Assembly (NCBI GenBank): GCA_964487165.1 | Contig: CAZARO010000001.1 | Coordinates: 1 to 31,228, forward strand | Direction of reading: 5' to 3' | Source: an uncultured Solibacteraceae bacterium | Lineage (GTDB): Bacteria; Acidobacteriota; Terriglobia; Bryobacterales; Bryobacteraceae | Length of the DNA: 31,228 bases | In this document: positions 2,150 to 31,178 of the stretch, piece by piece | Layout: the number at the start of each line of letters is the position of its first letter | Position numbering within the stretch: position 1 is the first letter of the stretch | The notes under the pieces: generated by a model | The model's database searches: none | What the model saw: the letters and a program-made list of their open reading frames with translations, nothing else | Told to the model about the DNA's origin: nothing | Made by a program: the position numbers and the translations under genes

Positions 2150-2251
2150 ATGAGCAGGACTGAAGTGGACCGATTTCGAGCCGCTCTCGCGGTTTGTGAC
2201 CTCGGCGCCGACCTGACGCTGGCGGTGGGAACACGTTGGCTTTGGAATTAG
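2150..2251 (+). pseudogene. 33-aa ORF with strong RBS; possible internally deleted TraR/DksA-family remnant
   Basis: GAGGAGGGAACA-ATG start. MSRTEVDRFRAALAVCDLGADLTLAVGTRWLWN*. The first 11 aa and ALAVCDL resemble, from recall, two separate segments of acidobacterial TraR/DksA proteins. No zinc finger is present. Confidence 0.35.
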
Positions 2252-2262
2252 TGAGGACAAGT

Positions 2263-3354
2263 ATGGCTTCGGACAATATATCTGTTATCAGCAGTTGCTT
2301 CCAAAACTCATTCTTGGCTGGCCGGCATGAAACCGCTTTCGAGCAGCCAAGCGGAAACCTGGTGTATCTTAATCCCGCGCTGCGCCTTAAGTACCCTGAC
2401 GGCATTGTCGGCGAGAGCGACGCTCTGAACGATATGGTGACTCAAATCAGAATGGTCGCCCCCACCGTTACTACCGTGCTTATCGAAGGAGAAACCGGCA
2501 CTGGCAAGGAACTCGCCGCTCATGCTATCCACCGCCACAGTCCGCGAAGCGCGCAGCCATTCGTCAAGATGAATTGCGCCGCCATTCCGGCAGCGTTGTT
2601 GGAGAGCGAGTTATTTGGCCATGAGAGGGGTGCATTCACCGGCGCTTTAATCCGGCGAATGGGACGATTTGAGGCCGCGCACAATGGCACGCTGTTTCTG
2701 GATGAGATCGGCGACATGCCCCTCGAACTCCAGGCGAAGCTCCTCCGCGTACTGCAGGATCACGAGTTCGAGCGCTTGGGGAGCAGCAGCACCGTCAAAG
2801 TGGACGTTCGCGTCATCGCGGCAACCAATCAGGATCTCGAGCAGCTTGTGGTCGAGAAGAAATTCCGTATGGATTTGTTCTACAGGCTGAATGTGTTTCC
2901 CATCTCCCTGCCTCCTTTACGCCGGCGGACAAAAGACATCCCCTTGCTGGCGGAGCATTTCATTGGTCTGTTTAACGAGCGTATGAACAAGCGCATCAAC
3001 AGGATTCCGGCAGATGCCTTGGATGCGCTGCTGCGCTATCACTGGCCGGGCAACATCCGCGAGCTACAGAACGTAATCGAGCGTTCTGTATTACATACTC
3101 CGGACGAGGTCCTGCGGCTTTGCCACCTACCCACCGATAACCGGACGGAACCAGTAACCCTGGAGGATGCCGAACGCGAACATATTCTGAAGGCGCTGCG
3201 GGAGACCAACTGGGTTGTGGGCGGACCGGCAGGAGCAGCAACTCGGCTCGGAGTGAAAAGGACCACCCTGATTCACATGATGCGCAGGCGGGGGATTTCG
3301 CACGGCGCGGCCAGCCTGCGACAGGCAGTTCAGGAAAAGTATTCAGTAAGGTAG
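2263..3354 (+). CDS. Sigma-54-dependent transcriptional activator (FhlA/NtrC-like AAA+ plus Fis HTH) with no N-terminal sensory domain
   Basis: RBS GAGGA 5 nt before ATG 2263. Walker A GETGTGKE, ESELFGHERGAFTGA, Walker B LFLDEIG, RVIAATN, DLFYRLNVFP, WPGNIRELQNVIER, and the FhlA-type HTH NWVVGGPAGAATRLGVKRTTL. Confidence 0.92.
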   Translation: MASDNISVISSCFQNSFLAGRHETAFEQPSGNLVYLNPALRLKYPDGIVGESDALNDMVTQIRMVAPTVTTVLIEGETGTGKELAAHAIHRHSPRSAQPFVKMNCAAIPAALLESELFGHERGAFTGALIRRMGRFEAAHNGTLFLDEIGDMPLELQAKLLRVLQDHEFERLGSSSTVKVDVRVIAATNQDLEQLVVEKKFRMDLFYRLNVFPISLPPLRRRTKDIPLLAEHFIGLFNERMNKRINRIPADALDALLRYHWPGNIRELQNVIERSVLHTPDEVLRLCHLPTDNRTEPVTLEDAEREHILKALRETNWVVGGPAGAATRLGVKRTTLIHMMRRRGISHGAASLRQAVQEKYSVR

Positions 3355-11788: not shown

Positions 11789-13246
11789 GTGATGCGGAAT
11801 CATAAACGCGCGCCCCGGGTGGGAGCACGAAGCGCAGTCATCCTGTTGGCAGCGGTCAGCCGTCTGTTCGCCCAATCGCCGCCCATATCGCCTGATGTTC
11901 CGTGGCATTCGCGCGAGGAACGGCAAGCAATCAGCGACGCGCACCGTTTTCGTTCACCGGCCCTGCACATAGAGCCCGATCGAGTCTATTCGTTGGCCGA
12001 GTTGATCGACCTGGCCGAAGCGCACAATCCGGAAACGCGGGTCGTCTGGGAAAGTGCGCTTGCCCAAGCCGCCGCGCTCGGGGTCGCCCGCAGCGAATTA
12101 TTTCCCACGCTCGCCGCGGTAGCGCTAGCGGGCGTCGATCGGCAGGATGCCGGCCTGGGTTCGCAGTTCTATCGGCAGACGATCCCGAGCTTTCAGATCT
12201 CGCTCAATCTCAACTACACGGTCTTCGACTTCGGTGCTCGCCGAGGCCGGATCAATGCCGAAAGCGCGCGGCTTCTGGCCTCGAACTTCGGTTTCAACGA
12301 TGTTCACAGGCAGCTGATCTATGACGTTTCGCTGGCTTATTACCGTTTGCTCAATGCGGCGGGGCAGGAAGAAGCGGCCGGGGCAAGCCTGGTAAACGCG
12401 CAGAATGTGCAGCAGGCTGCTGAAGAACGGCTCCGTAACGGTTTGGCGACTTTGCCGGACGTATTGGAAGCGCGCAGCGCCACGGCTCAGGCGCAATACG
12501 ATTTACAGGCGGTCTTGGGAGCGGAGCAGATCGCGCGTGGCGACTTGCTGACCGCGTTAGGGGCGTCCGCTTCCACCGCGATTCGTGTGCAGCCCTTAAG
12601 TGAGGTTCCGACGCCGGAAGCGGTGGCAGACACTGTCGAAGCCGCGATTGCACGCGCGCTCGACCAGCGCCCCGACCTTCAGGCGCAGTTCGCCGCGGTT
12701 CGCGCTGCGCAAGCAGAACGACAAGAAGCGCGGGCCGTGTTTTATCCCAACCTGAGCCTGACAGCAAACCCGGGCGCACAATCCCTTTATCTCCTGCAGC
12801 AGGCGCTTCCTTGGGGGCACACTGCGGACCTGACTGGTGGGGTGGCGTTCAGCCTCAACTGGACGGTTTTTGACGGAGGCGCCCGGCGCAACCGACTGGC
12901 GCAAGCGGAGGCTCAGATCCGCCAAGCCAAGGCGGAAGTCAGCGCCGCGCGCGATAGGATTGAGGACCAGGTTTGGACTGCCTATTCGAACTTGAACACC
13001 GCATTCCGCCAACGGCTGGCTGCAATTGAGTTGGTGAACGCCGCGACCCAATCTTATAGCGCTGCGCTTGCATCTTACAACTACGGCGTTAGGAACCTAC
13101 TGGATGTCACCAACGCTCAGAAGGTCCTGGCCGAGGCGCGCTCGACCGAGGTGTTCGCGCGGACCCAGGTGCTCGCGGCGCTGGCGGATCTGGCATACCG
13201 GGCCGGCGATGCGATTCAGGCAAATACGAGGAAGACTCACCCATGA
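11789..13246 (+). CDS. TolC/OEP-family outer membrane efflux protein
   Basis: Signal peptide (GTG 11789 or ATG 11792, cleavage near LFA-Q), SLAELIDLAEAHNPET, FDFGARRGRI, ALDQRPDL and FDGGARR: two OEP repeats. Confidence 0.9.
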   Translation: MMRNHKRAPRVGARSAVILLAAVSRLFAQSPPISPDVPWHSREERQAISDAHRFRSPALHIEPDRVYSLAELIDLAEAHNPETRVVWESALAQAAALGVARSELFPTLAAVALAGVDRQDAGLGSQFYRQTIPSFQISLNLNYTVFDFGARRGRINAESARLLASNFGFNDVHRQLIYDVSLAYYRLLNAAGQEEAAGASLVNAQNVQQAAEERLRNGLATLPDVLEARSATAQAQYDLQAVLGAEQIARGDLLTALGASASTAIRVQPLSEVPTPEAVADTVEAAIARALDQRPDLQAQFAAVRAAQAERQEARAVFYPNLSLTANPGAQSLYLLQQALPWGHTADLTGGVAFSLNWTVFDGGARRNRLAQAEAQIRQAKAEVSAARDRIEDQVWTAYSNLNTAFRQRLAAIELVNAATQSYSAALASYNYGVRNLLDVTNAQKVLAEARSTEVFARTQVLAALADLAYRAGDAIQANTRKTHP

Positions 13247-13500
13247 GCAAGACTTTTCGAAACTTGGGCCTGGCGTTCTTTCCACTGGTTTTGACGAGCT
13301 GCAGCCGTGCCCCGTCGTTTGATATCTTCGGTTCCTTTTTTCCCGCGTGGCTCTTTTGCGTGTTGCTGGGCCTGTTGCTCACGGCTGCAACCCGTCAGGT
13401 ATTTGTGCGCGTCCATGTTGTACTCGCCGTCCCCGTATTGACGTATCCTTGCCTCACCGCAATGTTCACATTTGCGATCTGGCTCGCGTTCTTTAGTTAG
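13243..13500 (+). CDS. ytcA: YtcA-family small lipoprotein/membrane protein
   Basis: Lipobox-like LTSC followed by SRAPSFDIFGSFFPAWLFC, the YtcA pattern. ATGA overlap with the OMF gene, and it sits directly before an MdtN-like gene. Confidence 0.75.
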   Translation: MSKTFRNLGLAFFPLVLTSCSRAPSFDIFGSFFPAWLFCVLLGLLLTAATRQVFVRVHVVLAVPVLTYPCLTAMFTFAIWLAFFS

Positions 13501-13511
13501 CGAGGAGCCTT

Positions 13512-14726
13512 ATGGAACCCACGAGTGGCAATAAGACCGGAATCCGGGTTGGCCGAATTCTAAGCATTCTTATCGTGACCGCGGCAATCGTATTAGGTCT
13601 CGCGGTGGTTCATCATGCGGGCCGCTACCCGCGGACCGACGACTGCGAGGTTCTCGCGAATTTTATCGGGATTGCGCCGCAAGTCGAAGGCCCTCTCATC
13701 CGGCTAAATGTGCAGGATAATCAGTTTGTGAAAAAAGGAGATCTCCTTTTCGAAATTGACGACCGGCCGTATCGGTACATGCTGGAGAAAGCAATCTCCG
13801 AACAGTCCACGCTGGAGGGGCAGATTTCCGATGAGCGCCGGAAGATCGCGGCCCTGGTGAGCGCAGTCTCAGTTTCGGAGGCAAACATCCACAGCACGGA
13901 AGCTGACGTGATTCGATGGGCGGCCGCAGTCGATCAAGCCACGGCAGATGTTGCCGTCGCCGAGGAGGCTGTCAGCCGTGTGAAGGCCGAGTGGACTTAT
14001 GCCAACAACAACCTGCATCGAATTGAGCCGCTGCTGGTGAAGCAGTTTGTCACCGTCGATCAGGTTGACCGCGCCAGGACCTCAGAGGTCGCGCAGTCAC
14101 AAGCCTTGAAGCAGGCCGAGTCTCAACTATTACAAGCCAAGGCCGCGCTCAAGTCCACAGTCGCGCAGGAACAGCGCTCAGAGGCGATGGTCGCGCAGAG
14201 CAGGGCCCAGCATGAGCAGTCTCAGAACGCCGTCACTACACTGGAGCCACTCATCAATCAGCGGGGCGGGCGGGCTTCAGCCATCGAAACTGCTCAGTAC
14301 AATCTCACCAACTGTCGAGTGTACGCTCCGTTTGACGCCCGGGTGACGAATCTTACGATTGCCGAGGGCGCGTATGCGCACGTCGGCCAGCAAGTGTTCA
14401 CGCTAATCGACGCACGGACGTGGTGGGCGGTTGGGAACTTCCGCGAAGGGCAACTGCAGCACATCGTGCCGGGAATGCGGGCAGACGTTTACCTCTTGTC
14501 CAAACCGGACATTCGCTTTTCCGGCGTAGTGGATAGCGTTGGCTTCGGTGTGACACCGGACGCGGACGTGGTGGGCCGGTTCGAACAGGGTCTACCGGAT
14601 GTGCAGAGAACGCTGAACTGGGTACATCTCGCATCCCGCTTTCCGGTTCGCGTGCGGGTTGAACACCCTTCGCCGGATCTGTTTCGCGTGAGTGAGTCAG
14701 CCGTGGTAGTAATTCGCGGGCGCTGA
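13512..14726 (+). CDS. HlyD-family periplasmic adaptor (MdtN-like)
   Basis: N-terminal TM helix, PRTDD, IAPQVEGPL..L.VQDNQFVKKGDLLFEID lipoyl half, long coiled coil, VYAPFDARVTNL, and GLPDVQRTLNWVHLASRFPVRV. Confidence 0.9.
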   Translation: MEPTSGNKTGIRVGRILSILIVTAAIVLGLAVVHHAGRYPRTDDCEVLANFIGIAPQVEGPLIRLNVQDNQFVKKGDLLFEIDDRPYRYMLEKAISEQSTLEGQISDERRKIAALVSAVSVSEANIHSTEADVIRWAAAVDQATADVAVAEEAVSRVKAEWTYANNNLHRIEPLLVKQFVTVDQVDRARTSEVAQSQALKQAESQLLQAKAALKSTVAQEQRSEAMVAQSRAQHEQSQNAVTTLEPLINQRGGRASAIETAQYNLTNCRVYAPFDARVTNLTIAEGAYAHVGQQVFTLIDARTWWAVGNFREGQLQHIVPGMRADVYLLSKPDIRFSGVVDSVGFGVTPDADVVGRFEQGLPDVQRTLNWVHLASRFPVRVRVEHPSPDLFRVSESAVVVIRGR

Positions 14727-14742
14727 CGGAATCGAGAAAGTT

Positions 14743-15306
14743 ATGACCGTAATTCAGGAAAAGAAACAATTCGAGCATGTTGACGCAGGCAACGCAGTCT
14801 TCCGGGCGATCGTGCTGGCGATCTCATGTGTGATTACCTTCCGGCTCATCACCCATATTCTGGCTAGTGTGTACTCTATTTCCAGGGACGACAATCTTCT
14901 GGGAGGGATGTGGGCCGTGGTAGCTACGATTTTCGTATTCCGGCAAAGTCACGCGGAGAGTGTACACGCAGCCTTGTCGCGCATGTCCGCTACATTAATG
15001 AGCTTCGCACTCTGTTTTGTTTATTTGCTGATCCTCCCATTTCATGTTTGGGGGATGGCAGGGCTGATCGCGATCGGCGCAATCGCGCTGGCGATGATCG
15101 GCCGCGCGGAGGACATTATGACGACGTCGATTACAACGGCGGTGGTTATGGTTGTGGCTGCGATAGGTCCTGAAAACGCCTGGCGCGAGCCTATTCTGAG
15201 GCTTGTCGATACGGCGTTTGGAGCCGCGATCGGTGTGGGAGCAGCCTGGATTTGCGCCTTCAGCCCTCGCGCTGTAACCGGCGCAGTGTCGGATGGTCAG
15301 GAATAG
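14743..15306 (+). CDS. Small FUSC-like (FUSC_2/ArAE-type) membrane protein
   Basis: About 6 hydrophobic segments, GGMWAVVATIFVF...S..AALSRMSAT, and the ITTAVV...RLVDTAFGAAIG pattern typical of FUSC-type cores. Confidence 0.7.
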   Translation: MTVIQEKKQFEHVDAGNAVFRAIVLAISCVITFRLITHILASVYSISRDDNLLGGMWAVVATIFVFRQSHAESVHAALSRMSATLMSFALCFVYLLILPFHVWGMAGLIAIGAIALAMIGRAEDIMTTSITTAVVMVVAAIGPENAWREPILRLVDTAFGAAIGVGAAWICAFSPRAVTGAVSDGQE

Positions 15307-17454
15307 ATGGCGTCAATTGCACAAGCGCTTCCAAGCGCGGACAGCCGGGTCACCTGGTTCTCGGAGTTTCTGAAAGAGGAACTCGCCCCGTACCGGGGAA
15401 GGGCCCTGCTCGTGACGCGAATGGTAGTGGCGTCAACGCTCGTCATGATCGTCACTATGACGTTCCGGCTTCCCTATGGCGCATATGGCGCGATTTATGC
15501 GTTGATTCTTTCCCGGACAAGCTTGGAAGCTACTGCGAGCGCCGTTCGCATGATTGCCATTGGCTTCCTGCTGGCTGGAGCATACATCATCCTTGGACTC
15601 ATGGTCGCGCTGGCCGATCCGATCCTGCGCTTCGCATGGATCACCGCGGGATTCTTCGGCGGTTTCTGGGCGATGAGTGCCCTCAATAACTATGCCGCAT
15701 CGGGCCGATTCGGCTATTTGATCGCGATCACCGTCACGTTGTGGGACCGGCCCATATCTCCGGCCCCAAAGGTAGAGAGCACTCTTTGGGCAGTAGGAGT
15801 GATCACACTCGCGAGTATTATCGCCCTGCTGATGGAGATCGCGTTTGCAGCGTTCAGGACGTCCGACGATTTGGCCGAGGGCATGACAGAACGGCTGACG
15901 TGCGTAGAAGAACTGCTGACGCAATACGTGACCGGCGAAGCGGCCACTGCTTCCATCCGGACGACGCTCGCGCGCCTGGCGATGACTGGCACATCGCGAA
16001 TGCGGCTAATCCTCCGCCGTTCCGGCTTTGACCCGCAGTACGCGGCGCAAATGGGCGCCGTAGTGGCGCTAACCGGCCGGCTCGTGGACCTGGCCGCGAA
16101 CCTGCCGTATTTCTCCGGCCTCGTGCCGGAGGGCGATCGTGAGCGCGTTGCCAAAGTCGCGACTCATATACGAGAAATCCGCGACGGCGTCGCCGGAGGC
16201 TCGGTTCCGCAGGTGTCTGAATTCGAAGCTGGAGGCGGGGCTCCGTGCAGTCTTCCCCTCTTCGCCGAAATTGAACAAACCGTCTCGCTGATAGTGCAAG
16301 CTCTCGCGGGATCTAAGTTCCCGAGCGTGTTTGCGCCATCCCCGGATCTCGGCGCGGGGAGGGTTAAAACTTATCTCAGCGGCAAGCTGCTGGATCCTGA
16401 ACATCTTAGATTCGCCCTGCGAGGCTGTCTCGCGGCAACCAGCTGCTACGTGATCTTCAACGTTCTGTTTTGGCCGGAGATTTCCACCGCGGTGACGACT
16501 TGTTTCGTCACGGCTCTCACCACCATCGGAGCGTCCCGGCAGAAGCAGGTGTTACGCTTCGCGGGTGCCCTTGTCGGCGGTTTCGGTATCGGTTTCGGTG
16601 CTCAAATATTCATACTTCCCTACATCGACTCGATCGCCGGGTTTACGGTGCTGTACATCGCCGCCATCACCATCGCGGCCTGGATTGCGACATCGAGCCC
16701 GCGTCTCTCTTACTTCGGCGTGCAGTTGGGAGTGGCTTTCTGCCTGATCAACTTGCTGGAATTCAAATTTCAAACCTCGCTCGCTGTGGCTAGGGATCGT
16801 GTGGTCGGGATTCTGCTCGGGCTGTTCATGATGTGGCTGTTTTTCGATCACCTTTGGAGCACGCCGGCCGGTTTGGAGATGAAGCGGACATTCACTTCTG
16901 CCTTGCGGTTGCTGGGACGGCTCGCTCGGGGACCGGTTTCGAACGATCTCCGGAAGGCAATTGAGGACAGCTATTTGCTGCGCGAGGAAATCAACGATAA
17001 GTTCGACCGCGTGCGATCGCTCGCAGACGGAGTGCTTTTCGAACTCGGTCCCTCACGGAGCAGCGATCTCGAATTGCGAGCTCGGATTCGTCGCTGGCAA
17101 CCTCAACTCCGCGCCCTCTTCGTGATGCGGATTGCATTGCTCAAGTACCGCCTCCAGGCGCCCGGGTTCGAGTTGCTGGGTGCAGTTCGCCTGCGCCAGG
17201 AAGCGTACGACGATGTCTCCGCCAGGGCACTGGAGGAAATGGCGGATCGCATCGAGAGTCAGGTCCCGGGGATCGGAAGCCGCGTCGAACATAGGGACGA
17301 GTTGAAGCGGAGGCTTTACGAGGCCGAAGCCGAAGCGTCCCGGGATTTGCCGCATCCGCAGGCGCAGTCGTTCCTTACCTTGCTCCGCGGCGTAGACGCA
17401 CTAACAGACTCTCTCGCGGCGGAAATCGCGGAAGAGTCCCTCGCTCCGTCTTGA
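15307..17454 (+). CDS. FUSC-family inner membrane efflux component (MdtO-like)
   Basis: FLKEELAPYRGR start and two TM bundles. The second bundle has HLRFALRGCLAA...WPEISTAVTTC...STIGASRQKQVLRFAGAL.GG and VARDRVVGILLG. Its ATG directly follows the upstream TAG. Confidence 0.85.
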   Translation: MASIAQALPSADSRVTWFSEFLKEELAPYRGRALLVTRMVVASTLVMIVTMTFRLPYGAYGAIYALILSRTSLEATASAVRMIAIGFLLAGAYIILGLMVALADPILRFAWITAGFFGGFWAMSALNNYAASGRFGYLIAITVTLWDRPISPAPKVESTLWAVGVITLASIIALLMEIAFAAFRTSDDLAEGMTERLTCVEELLTQYVTGEAATASIRTTLARLAMTGTSRMRLILRRSGFDPQYAAQMGAVVALTGRLVDLAANLPYFSGLVPEGDRERVAKVATHIREIRDGVAGGSVPQVSEFEAGGGAPCSLPLFAEIEQTVSLIVQALAGSKFPSVFAPSPDLGAGRVKTYLSGKLLDPEHLRFALRGCLAATSCYVIFNVLFWPEISTAVTTCFVTALTTIGASRQKQVLRFAGALVGGFGIGFGAQIFILPYIDSIAGFTVLYIAAITIAAWIATSSPRLSYFGVQLGVAFCLINLLEFKFQTSLAVARDRVVGILLGLFMMWLFFDHLWSTPAGLEMKRTFTSALRLLGRLARGPVSNDLRKAIEDSYLLREEINDKFDRVRSLADGVLFELGPSRSSDLELRARIRRWQPQLRALFVMRIALLKYRLQAPGFELLGAVRLRQEAYDDVSARALEEMADRIESQVPGIGSRVEHRDELKRRLYEAEAEASRDLPHPQAQSFLTLLRGVDALTDSLAAEIAEESLAPS

Positions 17455-21458: not shown

Positions 21459-24400
21459 CTACCAACCGATCGCTACCAGCAGCGTCTCCGGATTCTGGCA
21501 TGAGACATCGCTCGAATAGCCGCCGGCATCGTTATAGGGGAACGCATATTGCTGGCCATTGATGGCGATGGATGAAATGAATTGCGCGTAATGGTCATAG
21601 GGTTCCGTCTGGAAGAAATACGCGGGGTTCCCCCAGATACCTTGCGAGACCAGCGTACCGTTCGGATTGAACGTTCCGGGGCCGGCTGCGTGCCGGTAGA
21701 TAGCGGCGGAAAGATCGGGATAGGAACCCAGGCCCGATCCGTTCGCGCCCGCTTCCGGTATCGTCAGGCCGTTGGTTGACCAGACTTGGCTGATATAGGC
21801 GTTGTAATAGTTGGCGTACGGCCCGCCGGCGTTGAATCCGCCCGTACCAGGTTCGACGATCCGGTAAGGAGCATAGGGCGGTTGAGCTTCGGCCTGAAAA
21901 TCCGCCGGAACCTGGTTCAGATAGCGCGCGAACGTGGTCGCGCGGCTCTCGGCGAACGTCTCGGCATTTTCACCGACAGCCACATCGGTCCCGTCTCCAC
22001 AGGTCAGCCGCGCGGCCAGCTTGATGCCCAGCGCGTCCACTCGCGTGGTGTCGAAGTTGATCGACGTCGGCCCGATGGTGTACTCGATAAAGTCGTAGTA
22101 GTTGGTGCTGCCCTGGCCTACTGAGCCCAGATAGAAGTACATGCGTCCGGCGGAGTTCGCGGGCATATCGAACGTCGGCTGTGCCGCGATCGAGTTCGTG
22201 GTGGTGGTGCCGTTCAGGTTCACACTCCAGAAGACCTGGCCGTCCGCATAGACGCCGTTGGTGCGGTTCAGGAACTTGAACATCATCACGTTCTGCGCGG
22301 GAGGGACGTTGCTGGAATCCCAGAAGGGCGGATTCGATCCCAGAGGCGCGGTGGCAGCGCTTACTATAGGGGAAGCCAGCGAGGTACCGGAGGAATTACT
22401 CGCCTCGACTACGTAGTAGTAAGTCGTACTTGCGTTGGCCAGTACGTCCTGGAACATGTTGGCTTTGGTGGTGCCGATCTGATTGCTGCTCGCGGGTGCG
22501 AAGCCTGGGGTCGTTGCTCGGTAGACGCGATACGTCACAACGGCCGTCCCGGAGCTGGTGGCGGTGCTGGCATTCCAGCTCAGGTCGATTTCGTTGGCTG
22601 ACGCCGCTGTCGCCGTCAGGCCGGTCAACTCTGCGGGAGTGCCGGCCGTGGAGACGCCAAGCGTGGTAACCCCAACCGGGCCCGCAGGGGTCGATGTTAC
22701 CCCAGAGGCGTTGATCGCTTCCACCAGGTAGTAGTAGGTGGTGGAAGCTTCGAGCGGCGCGGCGCCGCCGTTGTCCGCAAAGTAAGTCATCGACCAAGTG
22801 GTGCAGACCTGGTAGGGGCTGCTCGCGGCGGTGAGGTTCGAAGACTGCGAGGCTGTGCACACCAGGTTCGAGGTGCCGGGCGTAAAGTTCGGGGTGGTGC
22901 TGCGGAATACCAGGTAGTTCACTCCCGCGGTCGGGCTCGCGGCCCAGTTCAAATAGGTCTGGGAACTGGTGGATGCCACCGCCGTCAAAGACGTCGGCGC
23001 CGCTACCGGGCCTCCTGTCCCACCCGTATTGATCGTGTAAGCTGCCGAGGCCACTGCGCTGTTGGTGTAGCCAGGCGCCACCGCGATCGCCTGGATGGTT
23101 TCGTTCGAGCTCACCGCGATCGCTGAGCTATAGACGGCTGACGACGTGGTCGGCGTCGAGCCGTTGGTAGTGTAGTAGATGGTTGCGCCCGTCGTGGTAT
23201 CGCTGAGCGCGACACTCTGTGCGGATGTATAGGTTCCTGCTGGAGGCGTGAAACTGGGAGCCGCGGCAACGGGCGGTGGCGGAGGCGTCGTGCTCAAAGA
23301 TTGCACCTCGATGCCCGCGATCTCCGCGTTGTCCTTGACGGTAGCGAGTGCAATCACAATCTGGCCGGATGCATTGGCCGTCACCGCGAATTGCTCCACC
23401 ACTGCTTTGTCGGGCCCGCCGGCAGCCTGGATGATATCGAAGTTAGTCAGCACCTGCGTGCCGTTGATGGTCACGTTGAACACGCGCTGCCCCACTTGCG
23501 TCCAGTAGTATTCGCTGAAGTGCAGCCGCACCGTATAACTCACTCCCGCTGTGAACCCGGGGATGGTGTAAGTGAAGTTGCCGAAGCGCTGTGTCTGGTA
23601 CACTGCTTCCGGCGCTGGATTGGTGACGCCGGCGGTACTGATGGTCGCGGTGTTGTTGGACGTAGAGCCGCCGGTGAAATATTCATCGGCCACAAAGTTC
23701 CCCACCGCGCCGCCGCCGGCGTGGATCGCGATCACGTCGGTAGAAGTTCCGGTGGCCGCGCTCTGGGTGGTAGCGCTGGCCTGTGCCGAAGGCGTCGACG
23801 CCCCCGCCGAACTGCTGGCTTCCACTACGTAGTAGTAAGTAGTGGCAGCGGTCAAGCCGGTATCGGCATAGTTCGTGCCATTGGTGCTGGCGATCTGATT
23901 CGTGCTGGCAGGCGTAAAGCCCGAAGTGGTGCTTCGAAACACCAGGTAGCCGGCGCCGCTGGTCGCGCTGGCGGTCCAGCTCAGGTTGATCTGGCTGGTG
24001 GAGGCCGGCGTAGCCGTCAGCCCGGCGGGCGCTGCCGGCGGCGGTGTGGATTGGGAGCTGGCCTGCTCGATCTCGATGCCATTGATCTCCGCGTTGTCCT
24101 TCACCGTAGCGAACTGAATCACGATCTGGCCGGAACTGTTCGCCGTCACCGGGAACTGCTCCACCACCGCCTGTTCGGGCTTGCCGGCGGCCTGAATGAT
24201 GTCGAAGTTAGTGAGCACCTGCGTACTGTTGATGGTGACGTTGAATACGCGCTGCCCCACTTGCGTCCAGTAATACTCGTCGAAATGCAAGCGGACGGTG
24301 TAACTGCCACCGGCCGTGAATCCCGGAATCGTGTAGCTGAAATTGCCGAAGCGCTGCGTCTGGTACACAGCTTCCGGAGCGGGATTCGTTACCCCCGCCG

Positions 24401-27400
24401 TGCTGATGGTCGCGGTGTTGGCCGATGTAGAACCGCCGTTGTAATACTCATCGGCGACATAACTACCGACAGTTCCGCCGCCGGCGTGAATATCCAGCAC
24501 ATCCCTGGAAGTGCCGGTGGACGCGCTCGGAGTAGTGGCGCTCGCCTGCGCCGAGGGCGCCGAGGCACCTGCCGAATCGCTGGCTTCCACCACGTAATAA
24601 TAAGTCGTGGACGCTGTCAGGCCGGTATCCGCGTAGGTCGTGGTGTTCGTGCTGGTGATCTGATTCGTGCTGGAAGGCGTGAAGCCTGAAGTCGTGCTCC
24701 GGAACACCAGGTAGCCGGCGCCGCTGGTCGCGCTGGCGGTCCAGCTCAAGTTGATCTGGCTGGGCGAGCCCGCGGCCGCAGTCAGGCCCGTGGGCGCGGC
24801 TGGCGGCACTACCGATTGTCCGCCCCCTTGCTCGATCTCGATGCCATTGATCTCCGCGTTATCTTTCACCGTGGCGAATTGAATCGCGATCTGGCCGGAA
24901 GCATTGGCTGTCACCGGGAACTGCTCCACCACCGCCTTGTCCGGCCCGCCCGCGGCCTGGATGATGTCGAAGTTGCTGAGCACCTGCGTGCCGTTGATGG
25001 TGACATTGAACACGCGCTGCCCTACTTGCGTCCAATAGTACTCGGCGAAGTGCAGCCGCACTGTGTAGCTGCCGCCCGCTGTGAACCCGGGAATAGTGTA
25101 AGTGAAGTTACCGAAACGCTGCGATTGGTAAACAGCTTGCGGCGCTGGATTCGTCACGCCCGCCGTGCTGATGGTCGAGGTCGTGTTTGAGGTAGACCCG
25201 CCGTTGTAGTATTCGTCGGCGGCGTAACTTCCTACCGCTCCTCCGCCGGCGTGAATGTCCAGCACATCGGTGGAACTGCCGGTGGCTGCGCTCTGGGTGG
25301 TGGCGCTTGCCTGCGCGGAAGGCGCGGAAGCGCCGCTCGAATCCACTGCTTCCACCACATAGTAGTAAGTAGTGGCAGCCGTCAACCCGCTATCCGAGTA
25401 TGTGGCCGTGGTTTGGCCGGACACCACCTGATTGCTTGCGGCCGGAACAAATCCCGCGGTTGTGCCGCGGAAGACGCTGTAGCTCACCGAACAAGGCGTG
25501 CCGGCTGTACTCGCTCCCCAAGCGAGAGCGATCTGGCTGAAGGATGTCGCTGTCGCAGACAGACTTCCCGGTACGGAGGGAGCCGCGGCGCAGGTGGCGG
25601 TCGTCACCGTGAGCAATACCGAGTTACTCAGTACGCTTCCACCGGCGTTGGTCACTCCCACGCTGAACTGCGCCCCGTTGTCGGTAGCGGCAGTCGCCGG
25701 CGTCGTGTAACTGCTGGCGGTCGCGCCGGTAATAGCTGTCCCGTTTCTGTACCACTGGTAAGTAAGAGTTCCCGGGCCGTTGGCGGCCACCGTAAAGCTG
25801 GCGGTCTGCCCCGCCGCGACGGTCTGCGGAGCGGGCTGCGTGGCGATCGTGGGAGGCATAATCGACGCTCCCGTGTCGCACACCACTCCGCCGGGGAAGT
25901 TATTGGCAACCTGCCAGCTCGATTGTCCCGCATAGGTGACGAAAGCGGCGTTGTTGCTGTCCGCAGGATCGGGGGTTGAGGTCCAGGTGCTCCAGGGCTG
26001 GGGGAATGCGCAGGAGGCCGAGTTAGTTCCGCTGATGCCGAGCGCTTCCGCTTGTGTCGGCAGCCGCATGCTCTGGCTGCTGCAATACGCTTGCGCAATC
26101 GGTTGAGTGTATTGCGCTCCCTGGCTATTCGCACCGGTGTAAGTGTTTTCCGCCCGCTGCCACGTCAGGCCGCTGACGTTGTCGCGCACTGTTGAGGAAC
26201 TCAGGATGGTATAACGCTCCGTGGCGCCGCCGCACTGGGGCACGTTGTAAACCTGCATTTCGTATAACGAATATCCGTACTGGGTGGCGCGCTGTTGGCC
26301 GTACATGCGGACATAGCGGCCATGCACCGTCGGAAAGGTAAGATTCTCTACTCCGCCTGCGCCGTCGCTGTTGCTATAAGCGAAGTTCCAATTAGTGTTG
26401 TCGGTGGAGTATTGAATCTGGTATTGCGTGGCGTATGCATTCTCCCAGTAGAGAATCACGTTGTCAAAGGGTTGAACCGAACCGAGGTCGATTTCCACCC
26501 AGGACGGGTCCACGCCGATCGCGGAGCCCCAGCGAGTAGTCAGGTTCCCGTCGTTGATATAGTTTGGCGTCAGTCCGCCGTTCTGCGAGGAACTGGCGGT
26601 GGCCGGCTGATTGAGAGCCAGGTTGACGCCCGGAGGAGCGATGGTCAACGTGGTCACATTGCTGGTGACGTTGCCCGCAGCGTTCGTCACTACCACGGTA
26701 TAGTTGCCGGCATTAGTCTGCTGGACTTGGAAGATACTATAAGACGCGGCGTTAGCACCAAGAAGGTTGACGCCGTTCAGTTGCCATTGATAGGTGAAGG
26801 GGGCAGAGCCGGAGACTCCGACCGTAAATGTTGCCGGGTCGTTCGCCAGTACGGAGAGACTTACCGGCTGTTGTGTGATTCCTGGCGCGACCGCGGCGGC
26901 TACCGTCAGCACCGCGGCCGTGGAAGTCACCGAATTGACCGGATTGGTAATGGTGACCACATAACTGTCGCCATTATTGCCCGCCGCCAATTCGGGAGTG
27001 GCATAAGTGGAGGCTGTGGCGCCACCGATAGAGGTGCCGTTTCTGTACCACTGGTAGGTGAGTACCGGCGAGCCGGTGGCGGCGACCGACAACTGCGCTG
27101 TCTGCCCGACATACACCGTCTGGCTAGCCGGCTGGGTGGTAATCGCCACGGCAGCCGGCAGATCTACCGTAAGCGTGGCGGCAGTCGATGTGGCCGAGCC
27201 CAGGCCATTACTCACGGTCATGGTAAAAGCGCTGTTATTGTCGCTGGAAGCCGTCGGGAGAGTTGTATAGCTCGCACCGGTGGCGCCAGTGATCGCACTG
27301 CCGTTCTTGTACCACTGGAATGTCAGGGGCGCGGTGCCGGTCGCGGTAACCGTGAAAGTCGCCGGCTGGCCCGCTGTTACGGCGGTGTTCACCGGCGGCA

Positions 27401-30092
27401 AGACGATTGCCGGTGCGGCGGGCGGAGGAAGGAACGAGGGAACGGGCTGGATGGTATACGTCGCCGATCCCGAAATCAGGCCGGGCCCGGTGGCCGTCAC
27501 CGTGACGGTTCCAGCGGTGAATTGGCTCATCACGGCGATTTTGGTCATGCCGCCCTCTACCTGCAGTTCGGGATCTCCAGGCGCATGGTAGTTGAACGCA
27601 CTATTGCCGGCAGCTGTGGAGTAGGCATCGGAGCCGTTTGCCACATACTGTTCGGTGCCACCCAGGTAGGTGGCCGGTCCACTTACGGAGAAGGTCAGCG
27701 TGTCGGCTGCGGTGGGAACCACCACTCCATTCGCATCCTGCACCTGGGCCGTGACGAACGCCACGTCGGACCCGTTAGCCGTCACAGCAAAGCTGGTTTC
27801 GTCCGGTTTCACCAGCTCGGGCACCACAGAAAGCACGATTTTGCTCTCTGCGCCGGCCGTAGTCTTGGTGTCCGTCGCTAAGACGTCCCCATACTGATCG
27901 AGACAATCCGCCTCTACCGTGCCTGCCTGCCAGTTCACCGCCCATGAGGTTTGAAACGGCATTATGGTGGTGCTTTGAGTCAAGTTAGCACTGGAGTTGG
28001 AGTCCCAACTATTCGGCGTTTGGATGGCGCCCTGTTGAACGCCGTTAATCAACAGGCGAACCGCCGGGCAATTACTGAAGGCGTTCACCTGAATGGGAGC
28101 CGATGCCTGGTAAGCACGGTTCCAGTGATGCGCCAGATGAACTACCGGCTTGATGGAGAAGGGCGTCCACGCCGCTTCATAGATGTAATACAGCAACTTG
28201 GGGAAGCGATTCATGTCCACCATGGAAGCGCCCAGAGCGCGCACGCTGGCCTGGTAGGTAGCCTGCTGCGCTGTGTTCAAGTACTGCTGATATTCCGCGT
28301 ACAGGCCGTTCTCGCCGGGCGAATCGGCAAAGTACCATTGCGCCATTCCAAAGGCATTGGCCTGCCTCCCTTGGCGCCAGTTATCCAGGAACGGAGCGGC
28401 GAACGCAAGCTCGTAATCGTAGGCCAAGCCACGGGCAGTGCCGTTCCCCCAATACTCCGCGCCCCACGCCGGATTATTCGGGAACTGGTCCTTGACCCCC
28501 ACTTCACAACCCTGCAGCGTGCACCCCAGCATATATCCGTTCGCGGGGTCAGGTGTGCGATCCGCGGCGACGCGCGTATTGATAGGATCCCAAGCCTGAT
28601 CGATTGCCAGAAGAGCTGCCCCGATAGTCTCGTCCATCGTGCCATTATTCGACTCCCAGTCCAGAATTGAAGGATGGCTACGATCGCGGACGATCATGTC
28701 GCGATGCAATTCTTCCTTCAGAGTCACATCGTCGGCGGGCGGCGTGGAGAAAGCATCTTCACCGTCGCCGCTTGGCTGATCGATCATGATGCCATAGGCG
28801 TCGGCCGCGTTCACGAACTCCTCGCTGGTAGTGGAGTGACCCGGACGCCAGATACTTCCACCGGCTGCGGCAAGTTGCGCCAGGTCGCGCCACTGCTGCT
28901 CTTCCGGAACCGAGGATCCGAGCGCGGGATAATCGTAACGTCCCGAAGCACCCCATAAGTACATTGGATGACTGTTGAAATAAGGGAAGTTATGATCCCA
29001 GGTAATTATTCGGATGCCGAGCGGGCTTTGGGCCGAATCCACCACCGCGCCGTTCACGCTGACGATATGGTAGACCTTATACATATAAGGTGTCCCATAA
29101 GTGCTATTATTCGGGTACCAGAGCGTGGGATTGTCTACCGTAATCTGCTGATCGAACATGGGGGTCGCCGCGGATGGGTAAGTGCTCGGAGTCATCGGCG
29201 GCACTGTTTGCGTGACGGGCGCCGCGGATGCCACAACGTTGCCGTTGGCATCCACGATTTGGGTAGTCAGAGTAACCTGTTGCGTCGCCGCCGTCTCATT
29301 AAGTACATTCGTCTGCACTTCCACCACGGCTGATGCCGCCTGCGCCGTGCTGTTAGGCGCCGGCGTCTCGGATACCGTGGCTACATAGGTGCCCCACGTT
29401 TTTTGATTGGAATACACGTTCACCGGGATATGCACCTTATTCGTGATGAACATGTACGCCGGGCGGAACAAGCCTGCCTCCGCCTGTCCGAATCGATAAT
29501 CTCCCGAGAAGGTCGGTTGTTCGAAGAACGAATTGTTCCTCGAAACGCGCACGGCCAGCACATTATCGGTCGCTCCGTCGGCGTGAAGGTATGGGGTCAA
29601 ATCGACGAGGAACGGTATGAAACCAATCACATGCGATGCGCTGGCGTTGGCGGATACGGCACTGATACCCGGCAGGAGGGTGCCATTGATATAAACTTGA
29701 GCGCCCGTGTGAGCGCCCTCAAACTCCACCATTACCTTGCTGTTCGCGTACTGCGTGCCAAGCGTGAAGTGCAGTCGATACCAGATGTTGCCGCCGTTCA
29801 GATCGCCGTCACCGCCGCCTGATTGTACATTGAGAAAGGATGTGAAATAATTCGCGCCGTGTGGAATGCCTACCGCGGTCCAACTGGAATCGCTAAAGGA
29901 AGGCGTGGCAAACGACGGCGAGTCCTGGTCTTTGACATACAGCCATTGGCGTTGTCCCGGCATGCCAGACGATAAGTTGATAGTAATCCTGTCGGAAGTA
30001 GGTAGCGTTGTTTCTACCTGTTGGGCACTAATATTGCCCGTGAACAACCATGCCGCCAAAAACACTGTTATAGTCAAAAGTAGACGATTCAC
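21459..30092 (-). CDS. Giant secreted modular glycoside hydrolase: SP - GH2 - DUF4982/Ig-like - Ig x3 - CBM32 - DUF1566(Lcl) - Ig - (FN3-malectin) x3 - chitobiase-C-like (Fn3-associated) - FN3 x2 - GH64
   Basis: 2877-aa ORF, RBS GGAGG 6 nt before GTG, signal peptide ending ISA-Q. GH2 motifs VEFEGAHTGAQVYING, LGIRIITWD and RDRSHPSILDW. Ig YQWYRNG motifs; CBM32 NLALNQPATASS..DGNLTTRW..YSLYEMQVY; Lcl VRDNVSGLTWQR..MRLPT; malectin YTVRLHFAEYY..GQRVFNV; APSFTPPAGTY..TIYYTTNGSTP; GH64 DFIEYT..TRVD and YAFPYND. Confidence 0.9.
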   Translation of the reverse strand: MNRLLLTITVFLAAWLFTGNISAQQVETTLPTSDRITINLSSGMPGQRQWLYVKDQDSPSFATPSFSDSSWTAVGIPHGANYFTSFLNVQSGGGDGDLNGGNIWYRLHFTLGTQYANSKVMVEFEGAHTGAQVYINGTLLPGISAVSANASASHVIGFIPFLVDLTPYLHADGATDNVLAVRVSRNNSFFEQPTFSGDYRFGQAEAGLFRPAYMFITNKVHIPVNVYSNQKTWGTYVATVSETPAPNSTAQAASAVVEVQTNVLNETAATQQVTLTTQIVDANGNVVASAAPVTQTVPPMTPSTYPSAATPMFDQQITVDNPTLWYPNNSTYGTPYMYKVYHIVSVNGAVVDSAQSPLGIRIITWDHNFPYFNSHPMYLWGASGRYDYPALGSSVPEEQQWRDLAQLAAAGGSIWRPGHSTTSEEFVNAADAYGIMIDQPSGDGEDAFSTPPADDVTLKEELHRDMIVRDRSHPSILDWESNNGTMDETIGAALLAIDQAWDPINTRVAADRTPDPANGYMLGCTLQGCEVGVKDQFPNNPAWGAEYWGNGTARGLAYDYELAFAAPFLDNWRQGRQANAFGMAQWYFADSPGENGLYAEYQQYLNTAQQATYQASVRALGASMVDMNRFPKLLYYIYEAAWTPFSIKPVVHLAHHWNRAYQASAPIQVNAFSNCPAVRLLINGVQQGAIQTPNSWDSNSSANLTQSTTIMPFQTSWAVNWQAGTVEADCLDQYGDVLATDTKTTAGAESKIVLSVVPELVKPDETSFAVTANGSDVAFVTAQVQDANGVVVPTAADTLTFSVSGPATYLGGTEQYVANGSDAYSTAAGNSAFNYHAPGDPELQVEGGMTKIAVMSQFTAGTVTVTATGPGLISGSATYTIQPVPSFLPPPAAPAIVLPPVNTAVTAGQPATFTVTATGTAPLTFQWYKNGSAITGATGASYTTLPTASSDNNSAFTMTVSNGLGSATSTAATLTVDLPAAVAITTQPASQTVYVGQTAQLSVAATGSPVLTYQWYRNGTSIGGATASTYATPELAAGNNGDSYVVTITNPVNSVTSTAAVLTVAAAVAPGITQQPVSLSVLANDPATFTVGVSGSAPFTYQWQLNGVNLLGANAASYSIFQVQQTNAGNYTVVVTNAAGNVTSNVTTLTIAPPGVNLALNQPATASSSQNGGLTPNYINDGNLTTRWGSAIGVDPSWVEIDLGSVQPFDNVILYWENAYATQYQIQYSTDNTNWNFAYSNSDGAGGVENLTFPTVHGRYVRMYGQQRATQYGYSLYEMQVYNVPQCGGATERYTILSSSTVRDNVSGLTWQRAENTYTGANSQGAQYTQPIAQAYCSSQSMRLPTQAEALGISGTNSASCAFPQPWSTWTSTPDPADSNNAAFVTYAGQSSWQVANNFPGGVVCDTGASIMPPTIATQPAPQTVAAGQTASFTVAANGPGTLTYQWYRNGTAITGATASSYTTPATAATDNGAQFSVGVTNAGGSVLSNSVLLTVTTATCAAAPSVPGSLSATATSFSQIALAWGASTAGTPCSVSYSVFRGTTAGFVPAASNQVVSGQTTATYSDSGLTAATTYYYVVEAVDSSGASAPSAQASATTQSAATGSSTDVLDIHAGGGAVGSYAADEYYNGGSTSNTTSTISTAGVTNPAPQAVYQSQRFGNFTYTIPGFTAGGSYTVRLHFAEYYWTQVGQRVFNVTINGTQVLSNFDIIQAAGGPDKAVVEQFPVTANASGQIAIQFATVKDNAEINGIEIEQGGGQSVVPPAAPTGLTAAAGSPSQINLSWTASATSGAGYLVFRSTTSGFTPSSTNQITSTNTTTYADTGLTASTTYYYVVEASDSAGASAPSAQASATTPSASTGTSRDVLDIHAGGGTVGSYVADEYYNGGSTSANTATISTAGVTNPAPEAVYQTQRFGNFSYTIPGFTAGGSYTVRLHFDEYYWTQVGQRVFNVTINSTQVLTNFDIIQAAGKPEQAVVEQFPVTANSSGQIVIQFATVKDNAEINGIEIEQASSQSTPPPAAPAGLTATPASTSQINLSWTASATSGAGYLVFRSTTSGFTPASTNQIASTNGTNYADTGLTAATTYYYVVEASSSAGASTPSAQASATTQSAATGTSTDVIAIHAGGGAVGNFVADEYFTGGSTSNNTATISTAGVTNPAPEAVYQTQRFGNFTYTIPGFTAGVSYTVRLHFSEYYWTQVGQRVFNVTINGTQVLTNFDIIQAAGGPDKAVVEQFAVTANASGQIVIALATVKDNAEIAGIEVQSLSTTPPPPPVAAAPSFTPPAGTYTSAQSVALSDTTTGATIYYTTNGSTPTTSSAVYSSAIAVSSNETIQAIAVAPGYTNSAVASAAYTINTGGTGGPVAAPTSLTAVASTSSQTYLNWAASPTAGVNYLVFRSTTPNFTPGTSNLVCTASQSSNLTAASSPYQVCTTWSMTYFADNGGAAPLEASTTYYYLVEAINASGVTSTPAGPVGVTTLGVSTAGTPAELTGLTATAASANEIDLSWNASTATSSGTAVVTYRVYRATTPGFAPASSNQIGTTKANMFQDVLANASTTYYYVVEASNSSGTSLASPIVSAATAPLGSNPPFWDSSNVPPAQNVMMFKFLNRTNGVYADGQVFWSVNLNGTTTTNSIAAQPTFDMPANSAGRMYFYLGSVGQGSTNYYDFIEYTIGPTSINFDTTRVDALGIKLAARLTCGDGTDVAVGENAETFAESRATTFARYLNQVPADFQAEAQPPYAPYRIVEPGTGGFNAGGPYANYYNAYISQVWSTNGLTIPEAGANGSGLGSYPDLSAAIYRHAAGPGTFNPNGTLVSQGIWGNPAYFFQTEPYDHYAQFISSIAINGQQYAFPYNDAGGYSSDVSCQNPETLLVAIGW
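21462..22310 (-). other. GH64 (beta-1,3-glucanase, thaumatin-like) module of the giant protein
   Basis: FKFLNRTNG, GRMYFYLG, YYDFIEYT-x-DTTRVD (Glu2670/Asp2686, 16 residues apart) and YAFPYND near the C-terminus. Confidence 0.75.
23300..25594 (-). repeat. Three tandem 765-nt (255-aa) FN3 + malectin units inside the giant gene
   Basis: TCTCCGCGTT starts at 23321, 24086 and 24851. ACCAGGTAGCCGGCGCCGCTGGTCGCGCTGGCGGTCCAGCTCA starts at 23941 and 24706. All offsets are exactly 765. Confidence 0.95.
28150..29990 (-). other. GH2 module (sugar-binding, Ig-like and TIM barrel domains) of the giant protein
   Basis: GH2-type sequence order and motifs. Putative nucleophile Glu546 lies in AWGAEYW (28455-28457). 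The acid/base position reads WESNNG instead of WxxxNE. Boundaries are approximate. Confidence 0.75.
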
Positions 30093-30605
30093 GGAATTCC
30101 TCCGATTAGTGTATTTAGATTGACTTGGTGTACATCCAGTTCTAACAGAGACGGTCGTCCAGACACTTACGCACTCGACGACCGAAGCCCGATTTCTCTC
30201 TCAGATGGCCGTTGCCGAAAGCTATTGTATGCCCAGTACTAACCTCGCTAAAGCGGTAAATCCTCAGTTGTAGTACTGCTAACAGGACGACAGGTAGAAC
30301 AATCCGTCCTTCGGCAGTATGGCGCATTCAACCTTAGTTAACTTATCTCACATCGCGGCACAGGCTGAAATAGTTCTGTAATAGAGGTTTATAACCCCTG
30401 GCCACCTAGAGAGTTTAGCCCACTTACAGAACGAACGCGTGAGGAATGTGCGACTTATCGGATGATATCGCACAGATCGGAAGGGCTCCAGCCGGCCGGA
30501 GCATCGCGAGGTTGAGGCTTGGTTGGGAAACTCGCGACGATCTGCGCCATTTCGCGGCCAAATGGCGCGAGTTGCGTAGATAGCAGTACCGCCTACGAGA
30601 GGGGC

Positions 30606-30704
30606 TCAAGCGGAAGACGGTCGATTCGATCGCTCGCGTGGTAATCGCCAGCGTGTTAAAGAGTTCTTATGAGGCAGTTCGTATGTAACGATGTTGGTTT
30701 TCAT
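30606..30704 (-). CDS. 32-aa small ORF of unknown function
   Basis: Very strong purine-rich RBS (GGGAGGAGAAAAGGACCGACC-ATG). MKTNIVTYELPHKNSLTRWRLPRERSNRPSSA*. No recognisable domain. Confidence 0.3.
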   Translation of the reverse strand: MKTNIVTYELPHKNSLTRWRLPRERSNRPSSA

Positions 30705-31178
30705 GGTCGGTCCTTTTCTCCTCCCGCGTCGGTTTGGAGAAGGGCTGAGTCCGCAAGGGAATGCGCCATTGCGACGGTTGGAAGCGGCCTGCCCGAACCG
30801 GATGCGGGTGGAAGTGCAACGGCGATTCTCCGGGTCCTCTGTCGCAGTTAATGCGCCACATGGAGCAGGATTTGCAAACCCTAATGCTTGGAAAAGAAGG
30901 CGGAAAAAATCCGGGACGGCGTCAAAAGTGGAATCTTCGCCGAGGACACCCCTGGCAGCCGCATTTGTAGATCCCGGATCGGCAGATTCCGCACTTTCAA
31001 GTGCAACTTTTGCATTTCGGCCCCGGTGAAGTCCCGGTTGCCGACACTGCTCCGGGCCGCTTTGGGGTTCGAAACAGCGGAGCTTATTATGGAGCATCTC
31101 GTGCTTATGATGAGGCGAAGCGCGGGGCTAATGGAGTGTTTCACCTCTGTTTATCCGTATAGGTTGAGGTGCGAGCCG

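Follow-up and report, generated by a model that had tools for sequence, protein, structure and literature searches.

The locus described here raises the question of whether a single bacterial gene encodes one giant secreted protein with a different glycoside hydrolase at each end, and whether such a protein is new. The gene was analysed at 21459..30092 on the reverse strand of a 31,228-nt stretch of contig CAZARO010000001.1 from an uncultured Solibacteraceae bacterium (the whole stretch is called the window below, and all positions refer to it). A first-pass annotation of this DNA had described the product as a two-headed enzyme, with a glycoside hydrolase family 2 (GH2) module at the N-terminus and a family 64 (GH64) module at the C-terminus, joined by a scaffold made up of binding modules and spacers. 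This layout was borne out, and both heads keep catalytic carboxylates that are invariant in the family. The protein is an ordinary new ortholog of a sequenced, unstudied family, and databases already contain its architecture. In our opinion, it is probably a Sec-exported, unanchored, bifunctional multi-modular glycoside hydrolase of a widespread, horizontally shuffled family, likely acting on beta-1,3-glucan walls or matrices.

The gene is one uninterrupted open reading frame (ORF) of 2877 codons with a GTG start. At about 60% GC, approximately 3% of random codons are stops, and simple arithmetic gives a chance of ~1e-41 for 2877 stop-free codons. Because such an open frame is so improbable by chance, the long forward-strand ORFs in this region (for example, 26295..27881) were taken to be shadows of the giant ORF. 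Kyte-Doolittle analysis showed that residues 1-23 form the sole hydrophobic peak of the whole protein, which suggests a Sec-type signal peptide and export. No membrane anchor or further hydrophobic segment was found beyond these residues. Pfam (E<=0.01) and NCBIfam scans of the protein revealed no dockerin, cohesin, autotransporter barrel, PEP-CTERM signal or type IX secretion system (T9SS) tail, and the C-terminus (...VAIGW) has the same ending as the solved GH64 chains.

The N-terminal head was assigned to GH2. Pfam was searched both with the entire protein and with pieces cut from it, and some modules were detected only when scanned alone. PF00703 (52 bits), DUF4982 and GH2_C5 were detected in the whole protein, PF02837 reached 27.5 bits at a cut-off of 28, and the homologs of the window GH2 barrel carry PF02836. 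NCBIfam gave only partial matches of the GalA/GalB type, far below the equivalog cut-offs. Among the solved structures, 98 chains match the head at E<=1e-3, and all chains listed are GH2. The Formosa agariphila GH2 (6hpd) aligns with the head end to end (2e-66, residues 25-883), and the beta-galactosidases 7cwd, 4ypj, 8q2h and 4cu6 align with it in two blocks. DUF4982 together with C-terminal extensions is typical of 'DA type 5' GH2 enzymes, whose characterised members are mostly beta-galactosidases (PMC5145203). The five-domain layout, DUF4982 and the C-terminal Ig-like domain are shared by the window protein, 6hpd, the DA-type-5 enzyme BgaD-D (4ypj), 7cwd and 8q2h (PMC5145203); unlike the window protein, the solved GH2 enzymes do not carry GH64.

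The position of the nucleophile Glu is also shared with the DA-type-5 beta-galactosidases, namely E546 (GAEYW), which is aligned with the G-x-E stretch of 4ypj and 7cwd in the profile alignment and with SEY of 6hpd. The motif W-S-x-G-N-E of other GH2 enzymes (WSIGNE) is replaced by WESNNG in the window and by WEGGNW in 6hpd, which, like the window protein, is without the canonical 'NE' acid/base; no account of the activity of 6hpd was found in the literature. No variation was found at E480, N483 and E546 among 73 relatives (47-81% identity), and this invariance indicates that the GH2 active site is under selection.

The assignment of the C-terminal tail to GH64 is supported by a profile, solved structures, the predicted fold and an invariant Glu/Asp pair. 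PF16483 is missing from the whole-protein table and matched the last 278 aa scanned alone with E = 3.5e-22 (79.6 bits, cut-off 27). A sequence search of the PDB with the tail returned GH64 entries only, including 9vp9 (1.5e-26), for which no literature was found, and 5h9x (2e-24; 5h9x/5h9y ~1e-24). E2670 (DFIEYT) aligns with the residue that is changed from Glu to Ala in 5h9y relative to 5h9x, and D2686 (TTRVD) is located 16 residues downstream. Across 44 aligned homologs neither residue varies, and they correspond to the catalytic Glu (general acid) and Asp (general base) positions of the characterised laminaripentaose-producing GH64 enzymes. Modeling of the module using AlphaFold2 with this alignment as input led to a predicted local distance difference test score (pLDDT) of 82.8, and a Foldseek search with the model gave significant matches to GH64 structures only, with template modeling (TM) scores of 0.55-0.67 normalised to the query; the best match was 5h9x (E 3.5e-18, TM 0.67).

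The predicted fold of the tail is, by Foldseek (E 3.5e-18 to 1e-8), the two-domain GH64 fold of PbBgl64A (5h9x/5h9y), the Clostridium beijerinckii GH64 (5h4e) and the Streptomyces matensis LPHase (3gd0). However, the identity of the window module to the characterised enzymes is only 15-24% in the Foldseek alignments, and the module is shorter and belongs to a separate soil clade. In soil metagenomes, this clade of short GH64 is abundant and consists mostly of stand-alone proteins of 300-500 aa; the homologous-protein search listed nothing longer than ~610 aa, although NCBI genomes contain relatives of 2000-3400 aa. Actinobacterial CBM32-GH64 proteins of ~600 aa (P0219, P0223, P0233) resemble the window protein in the fusion of a discoidin to GH64 (PF00754 + PF16483), but they have one catalytic head, contain neither GH2 nor malectin and are about five times shorter.

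Fifteen modules were found between the two catalytic heads, in the order three immunoglobulin-like (Ig), F5/8 type C or carbohydrate-binding module family 32 (CBM32), Lcl_C, Ig, three fibronectin type III (FN3)-malectin pairs, CHB_HEX_C and two FN3 (Table 1). Lectin-type modules number four or five in total, and Ig/FN3 modules nine. The Lcl_C assignment (PF07603) is marginal, with 37.3 bits when scanned alone (cut-off 34.9) and 32.6 bits in the whole protein; this module is present at the same position in nearly all relatives. The FN3-malectin repeats have a period of 255 aa (765 nt) and are 73-84% identical in protein and 82-84% in DNA, and their three malectin stretches (PF11721) gave 236.6 bits together. 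Pfam recognised three FN3 copies, two of them above the cut-off singly (61.2 bits at residues 1766-1852, and 25.8 versus 25 for the copy FN3a). The remaining two copies were recognised by internal homology (E 1e-12 to 1e-19). In the FN3 pair preceding GH64, the second copy is a weak Pfam fn3 match (20.4 bits), and the first has no match and holds an insertion of ~25 aa with two Cys residues.

Table 1. Features of the giant gene and its start region; positions are those of the window and residue numbers (aa) those of the protein
Feature	Position	Strand	Evidence
Ribosome-binding site region	30093..30110	-	GGAGG 7 nt 5' of GTG, read from the sequence
Signal-peptide-like N-terminus, aa 1-23, MNRLLLTITVFLAAWLFTGNISA before QQ, without lipobox Cys	30024..30092	-	Hydropathy
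GH2 head, aa 24-885: sugar-binding, Ig-like, TIM barrel, DUF4982 and GH2_C5 domains	27438..30023	-	Pfam, NCBIfam, PDB
Altered GH2 acid/base motif, codons 477-484	28650-28664	-	Alignment to 6hpd, 4ypj, 7cwd
Three tandem Ig-like modules, aa 890-1150	26643..27425	-	Ig_3 and I-set, E ~1e-8 to 1e-10 each
F5/8 type C / CBM32-like module, aa 1155-1285	26238..26630	-	PF00754, 6.5e-27, 94.6 bits
Lcl_C (DUF1566-type) module, aa 1291-1405	25878..26222	-	PF07603, marginal
Fourth Ig-like module, aa 1406-1498; last module of the family-conserved core	25599..25877	-	Pfam of the piece and relatives
Three tandem FN3-malectin repeats, aa 1499-2265	23298..25598	-	Pfam, repeat search, alignment
CHB_HEX_C_1 / Fn3_assoc module, aa 2278-2352	23037..23261	-	Pfam of the piece, 3e-22
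Two further FN3-like modules, aa 2361-2585	22338..23012	-	Internal homology to the other FN3 copies
Short-type GH64, aa 2586-2877, E2670 + D2686, C-terminus ...IGW	21462..22337	-	Pfam, PDB, fold

This order agrees with the inventory of the first-pass annotation (four Ig, one CBM32, one Lcl, five FN3, three malectin and one chitobiase-C module between the heads). Its N-terminal GH2 and C-terminal GH64 were confirmed by Pfam and by the PDB alignments, its signal peptide is consistent with the hydrophobic N-terminus, and its statement that the protein has no C-terminal anchor or autotransporter barrel agrees with the Pfam, NCBIfam and hydropathy results. It had named beforehand a lack of profile support for GH2 or GH64 as a refutation; such support was obtained with PF00703 and PF16483. 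The expression 'cellulosome-like' is acceptable as a loose analogy for several modules on one chain, but not literally, with cohesin and dockerin both absent from the Pfam scan. A fungal or algal wall as the target, a role in antagonism and a rigid Ig/FN3 rod, which the annotation also proposed, are plausible.

To evaluate the novelty of the architecture, one genome per GTDB species was scanned with the GH2 head. A total of 88 relatives were found and 80 were kept; the locus counts below refer to these 80. Nearly all of the loci are ORFs of 1700-3400 aa with the core GH2-Ig-Ig-Ig-CBM32-Lcl-Ig, after which CBM32/Ig or FN3/malectin units form an array that varies between loci (in the window, three FN3-malectin units and CHB_HEX_C). 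Tails of ~390 aa, missed by the window-derived probes, were found to be full-length GH64 (PF16483, E 1e-80 to 1e-86). GH64 is located in the same ORF as GH2 in 59 of the 80 loci, 53 of them with the long type and 6 with the short type as in the window, and in a downstream ORF in three; about ten loci are cut by contig ends. Single-ORF GH2...GH64 genes are present in finished chromosomes (NZ_CP132941.1, NZ_CP132944.1, NZ_CP064032.1 and CP085323.1), including those of Tunturiibacter and Dyella, and type strains are among the public genomes that carry the family. The first-pass annotation had not recognised the full architecture as described, and these counts do not bear this out. It had also listed as refuting an architecture that is already common and characterised: the architecture is indeed common, but its characterisation was not confirmed, as no paper describing or assaying a GH2+GH64 protein was found in our literature searches.

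Many of the carriers belong to Acidobacteriaceae (Granulicella, Tunturiibacter, Terracidiphilus, Edaphobacter, Bryocella). The gene was also found in Rhodanobacteraceae (Dyella, Luteibacter, Rhodanobacter), in Silvimonas, Andreprevotia and Amantichitinum, and in metagenome-assembled genomes labelled Kofleriaceae, Cellvibrionaceae and Aliidongia. In a neighbour-joining tree of the GH2 heads, the Dyella/Rhodanobacter clade is nested inside Acidobacteriaceae, and the short tails are scattered among the long ones. This nesting and scattering point to transfer of the giant-gene family between phyla and to repeated swapping of its tails. For the window, the closest GH2 relative and the GC content suggest an origin in Acidobacteriaceae, a weak indication for a gene that moves between phyla.

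The relatives most similar in layout are giant GH2...short-GH64 ORFs, namely those of Tunturiibacter psychrotolerans X4BP1 (L018, NZ_CP132941.1), T. lichenicola (L033), an uncultured Acidobacteriaceae bacterium (L014) and Terracidiphilus (L054, L037), and the 2823-aa protein P0302. Like the window protein, they contain the core and an FN3/malectin array followed by FN3-FN3-short GH64. They are collinear with it over ~1600 N-terminal residues (53-59% identity) and ~860 C-terminal residues (47-50%), and this collinearity at both ends was found for L014, L018, L054 and P0302. However, they have one malectin and extra Ig/FN3 modules, whereas the window protein has three FN3-malectin repeats. The Tunturiibacter ORFs also differ from it in odd internal hydrophobic, basic and lipobox-like segments. 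In L018 and L033, two such segments are found in the middle of the giant ORFs. Each combines a hydrophobic helix with a basic cluster (RRKRR/RKKR) and a stretch resembling a lipobox (LLTGCG/LLSGCG), so that they look like a sorting signal joined to the signal peptide of a lipoprotein within an ORF that is otherwise continuous.

The closest GH2 head (80% identity) belongs to Granulicella sp. S156 (L003, NZ_LMUH01000026.1), in which the modules are divided between neighbouring genes. ORF1, a GH2 gene of 2143 aa, is 71% identical to window residues 5-1862, and ORF2 (1529 aa) ends in a short GH64 and is 51% identical over window residues 2019-2877. Unlike in the window, these are two separate genes that both encode a signal peptide, and upstream of them lies another gene, of 1263 aa and rich in malectin. 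Together they form a row of three consecutive large secreted FN3/malectin-rich genes (L003, 5980-21054), a split version of the window gene. The long-GH64 proteins of Dyella, Rhodanobacter, Luteibacter, Silvimonas and many Acidobacteriaceae (L021, L043, L016, L064) have the same core and two heads, with a GH2 identity to the window of 47-66%. Their arrays consist of CBM32/Ig or FN3/malectin units, and the tail is a canonical GH64 of ~390 aa (PF16483, E ~1e-80).

For the giant protein, we infer export, substrates, cooperation of the heads and an ecological role as follows. The exported protein would bind insoluble glycan multivalently through CBM32, Lcl_C and the three malectins. The C-terminal GH64 would make inverting endo-cuts in beta-1,3-glucan, and the N-terminal GH2 (beta-galactosidase-like, DA type 5) would trim a beta-linked terminal sugar from the same composite substrate, with the Ig and FN3 modules serving as spacers. 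The substrate would be a wall or matrix containing beta-1,3-glucan, most probably a fungal or lichen cell wall. Beta-1,3-glucan is the most defensible target because two types of GH64 recur with the GH2 core, in the same ORF, in the next ORF or in a neighbouring gene. Andreprevotia, Amantichitinum and Silvimonas are chitinolytic, and Luteibacter is fungus-associated; the presence of such genera among the carriers, together with the habitats of the carriers, makes a fungal or lichen wall the most likely source.

A number of observations weigh against a bifunctional enzyme acting on beta-1,3-glucan. In the GH2 head, the TIM barrel (PF02836), scanned alone, gave 19.6 bits, below the cut-off of 21. 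The position of the canonical acid/base Glu of 'NE' after beta-strand 4 is occupied by Gly484, so that the head could be inactive or mechanistically unusual. E480, located four residues upstream of Gly484 and also present in the 'WE' of 6hpd, is a candidate substitute acid/base; the AlphaFold2 model of the GH2 barrel, built with 25 fragmentary homologs, has a pLDDT of 48.5, at which the active-site geometry cannot be checked. The short GH64 is ~90-100 residues shorter than the characterised GH64 enzymes, and no characterised member of its clade was found. About half a dozen relatives (L001, L005, L007, L008, L032, L036) end in CBM32 without GH64. Enzymatic data were found for no member of the family, and no conserved operon partner or neighbouring transporter hinting at the substrate was found across the family loci.

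A further-reaching version of the bifunctional reading, to which we attach a low probability, is that the gene is a horizontally mobile single-gene 'wall-lysis cassette'. It would combine a non-canonical GH2 acid/base (WE for NE) of undescribed specificity with a short GH64 that represents an uncharacterised subfamily, and the heads would act together on decorated beta-1,3-glucan, for example that of a fungal or lichen wall in which galactose, galactofuranose or uronic acid is beta-linked. Through its exchangeable modules, the lectin array would adjust the choice of the organism whose wall is attacked.

It is also conceivable, if rather unlikely, that the protein degrades or remodels bacterial exopolysaccharide (EPS) or biofilm matrix, its own or that of a competitor, with the heads cutting a heteropolysaccharide and the lectin-like modules binding the matrix. 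Acidobacteriaceae are EPS producers, and the specificities of CBM32 and malectin are broad. However, GH64 activity is, to our knowledge, known on beta-1,3-glucan only, and this glucan has, as far as we know, not been reported from acidobacterial EPS. Dyella, Rhodanobacter, Silvimonas and Amantichitinum, all of them non-acidobacterial carriers of the giant gene, are reported to be abundant in cultures with Granulicella EPS as growth substrate, but the same cultures contained 14.5% Ascomycota sequences, so that the overlap in taxa may reflect habitat (PMC7265232).

That the protein is mainly an adhesin or surface lectin, with an array attaching to hyphae, plant or lichen surfaces and catalytic heads that are degenerate binding domains, seems improbable to us. 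The Ig/FN3 arrays, the four lectin-type modules plus Lcl_C, the JGI label 'trimeric autotransporter adhesin' on some fragments and the non-canonical GH2 acid/base motif would fit such a function. However, an anchor, a barrel and a sorting signal are absent according to Pfam, NCBIfam and hydropathy, and neither the GH64 Glu/Asp pair nor GH2 E480/E546 varies among distant relatives, an argument that catalysis has been retained. Finally, it is very improbable that a GH2 gene and a malectin-GH64 gene were joined by the assembly across the FN3-malectin repeats: the arrangement in Granulicella sp. S156, the closest relative, with its break in the repeat region and a signal peptide on the second ORF, and the three 765-nt repeats of the window would allow it, but the repeats are too diverged in DNA for easy collapse, a single ORF is found in 59 other loci, including finished chromosomes, and the collinearity of the window with single-ORF loci extends across the junction (residues 2019-2877).

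Acidic soils, peat and tundra are dominated by Acidobacteriaceae and Rhodanobacteraceae. A secreted protein of 2000-3400 residues that is conserved across several phyla and combines GH2 with a beta-1,3-glucanase is a good candidate for the use or attack of fungal biomass or beta-glucan matrices. For the field of carbohydrate-active enzymes, the interest lies in the family, namely in the altered GH2 acid/base motif common to it and 6hpd, in the abundant short GH64 clade and in the exchange of modules within the binding array and at the GH64 end, also across phyla. The window itself adds one more member.

In the window, the giant gene stands alone and is convergent with glgX, with 34 nt between the stop codons; an exact look-up in the contig collection returned neither the giant protein nor GlgX. 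Upstream, a non-coding stretch of ~500 nt (30093-30600) has a lower GC content (0.52-0.56; the 1-kb segments of the window range over ~0.52-0.63), and no Rfam family, tRNA or sigma70-like promoter match was found in it. It is followed by a 163-aa ORF (30606..31097, reverse strand) with no Pfam match. The other neighbours, namely a histidine kinase, a response regulator, a sigma54 activator, hydrolases, cytochrome bd, Mqo, a FUSC efflux set, MalQ and GlgX, are unrelated to the giant gene. In the other loci, GlgX, FUSC, HlyD and Mqo do not recur beside the giant gene, and MalQ (L059) and OEP (L049) were found there once each.

In Silvimonas (L016, 7554-9095, reverse strand; L019; L072), a lipoprotein-like protein of 458-513 aa with Ig and a short GH64 is encoded directly upstream of the giant gene and in divergent orientation, and the giant gene itself ends in the long-type GH64. 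This adjoining GH64 lipoprotein and the neighbouring GH64 gene of Granulicella sp. S156 tie the GH2 and GH64 functions together. A different conserved gene, encoding 450-550 aa with a single predicted membrane segment and an N-terminal region that resembles a regulator, is divergent upstream of the giant gene in 11 Acidobacteriaceae loci (e.g., L015, 1338-2813, reverse strand) and is absent in the window.

Two observations concern the remainder of the window. The sigma54-dependent activator (2236-3354, forward strand) has its AAA+ domain from residue 57 and is without a receiver or other sensory domain. The tripartite efflux set (11789-17454, forward strand) consists of OEP, a HlyD-type adaptor and a FUSC-family inner-membrane protein, the last of which is split into ORFs of 187 aa and 715 aa that meet at 15306/15307, given as a one-base overlap.

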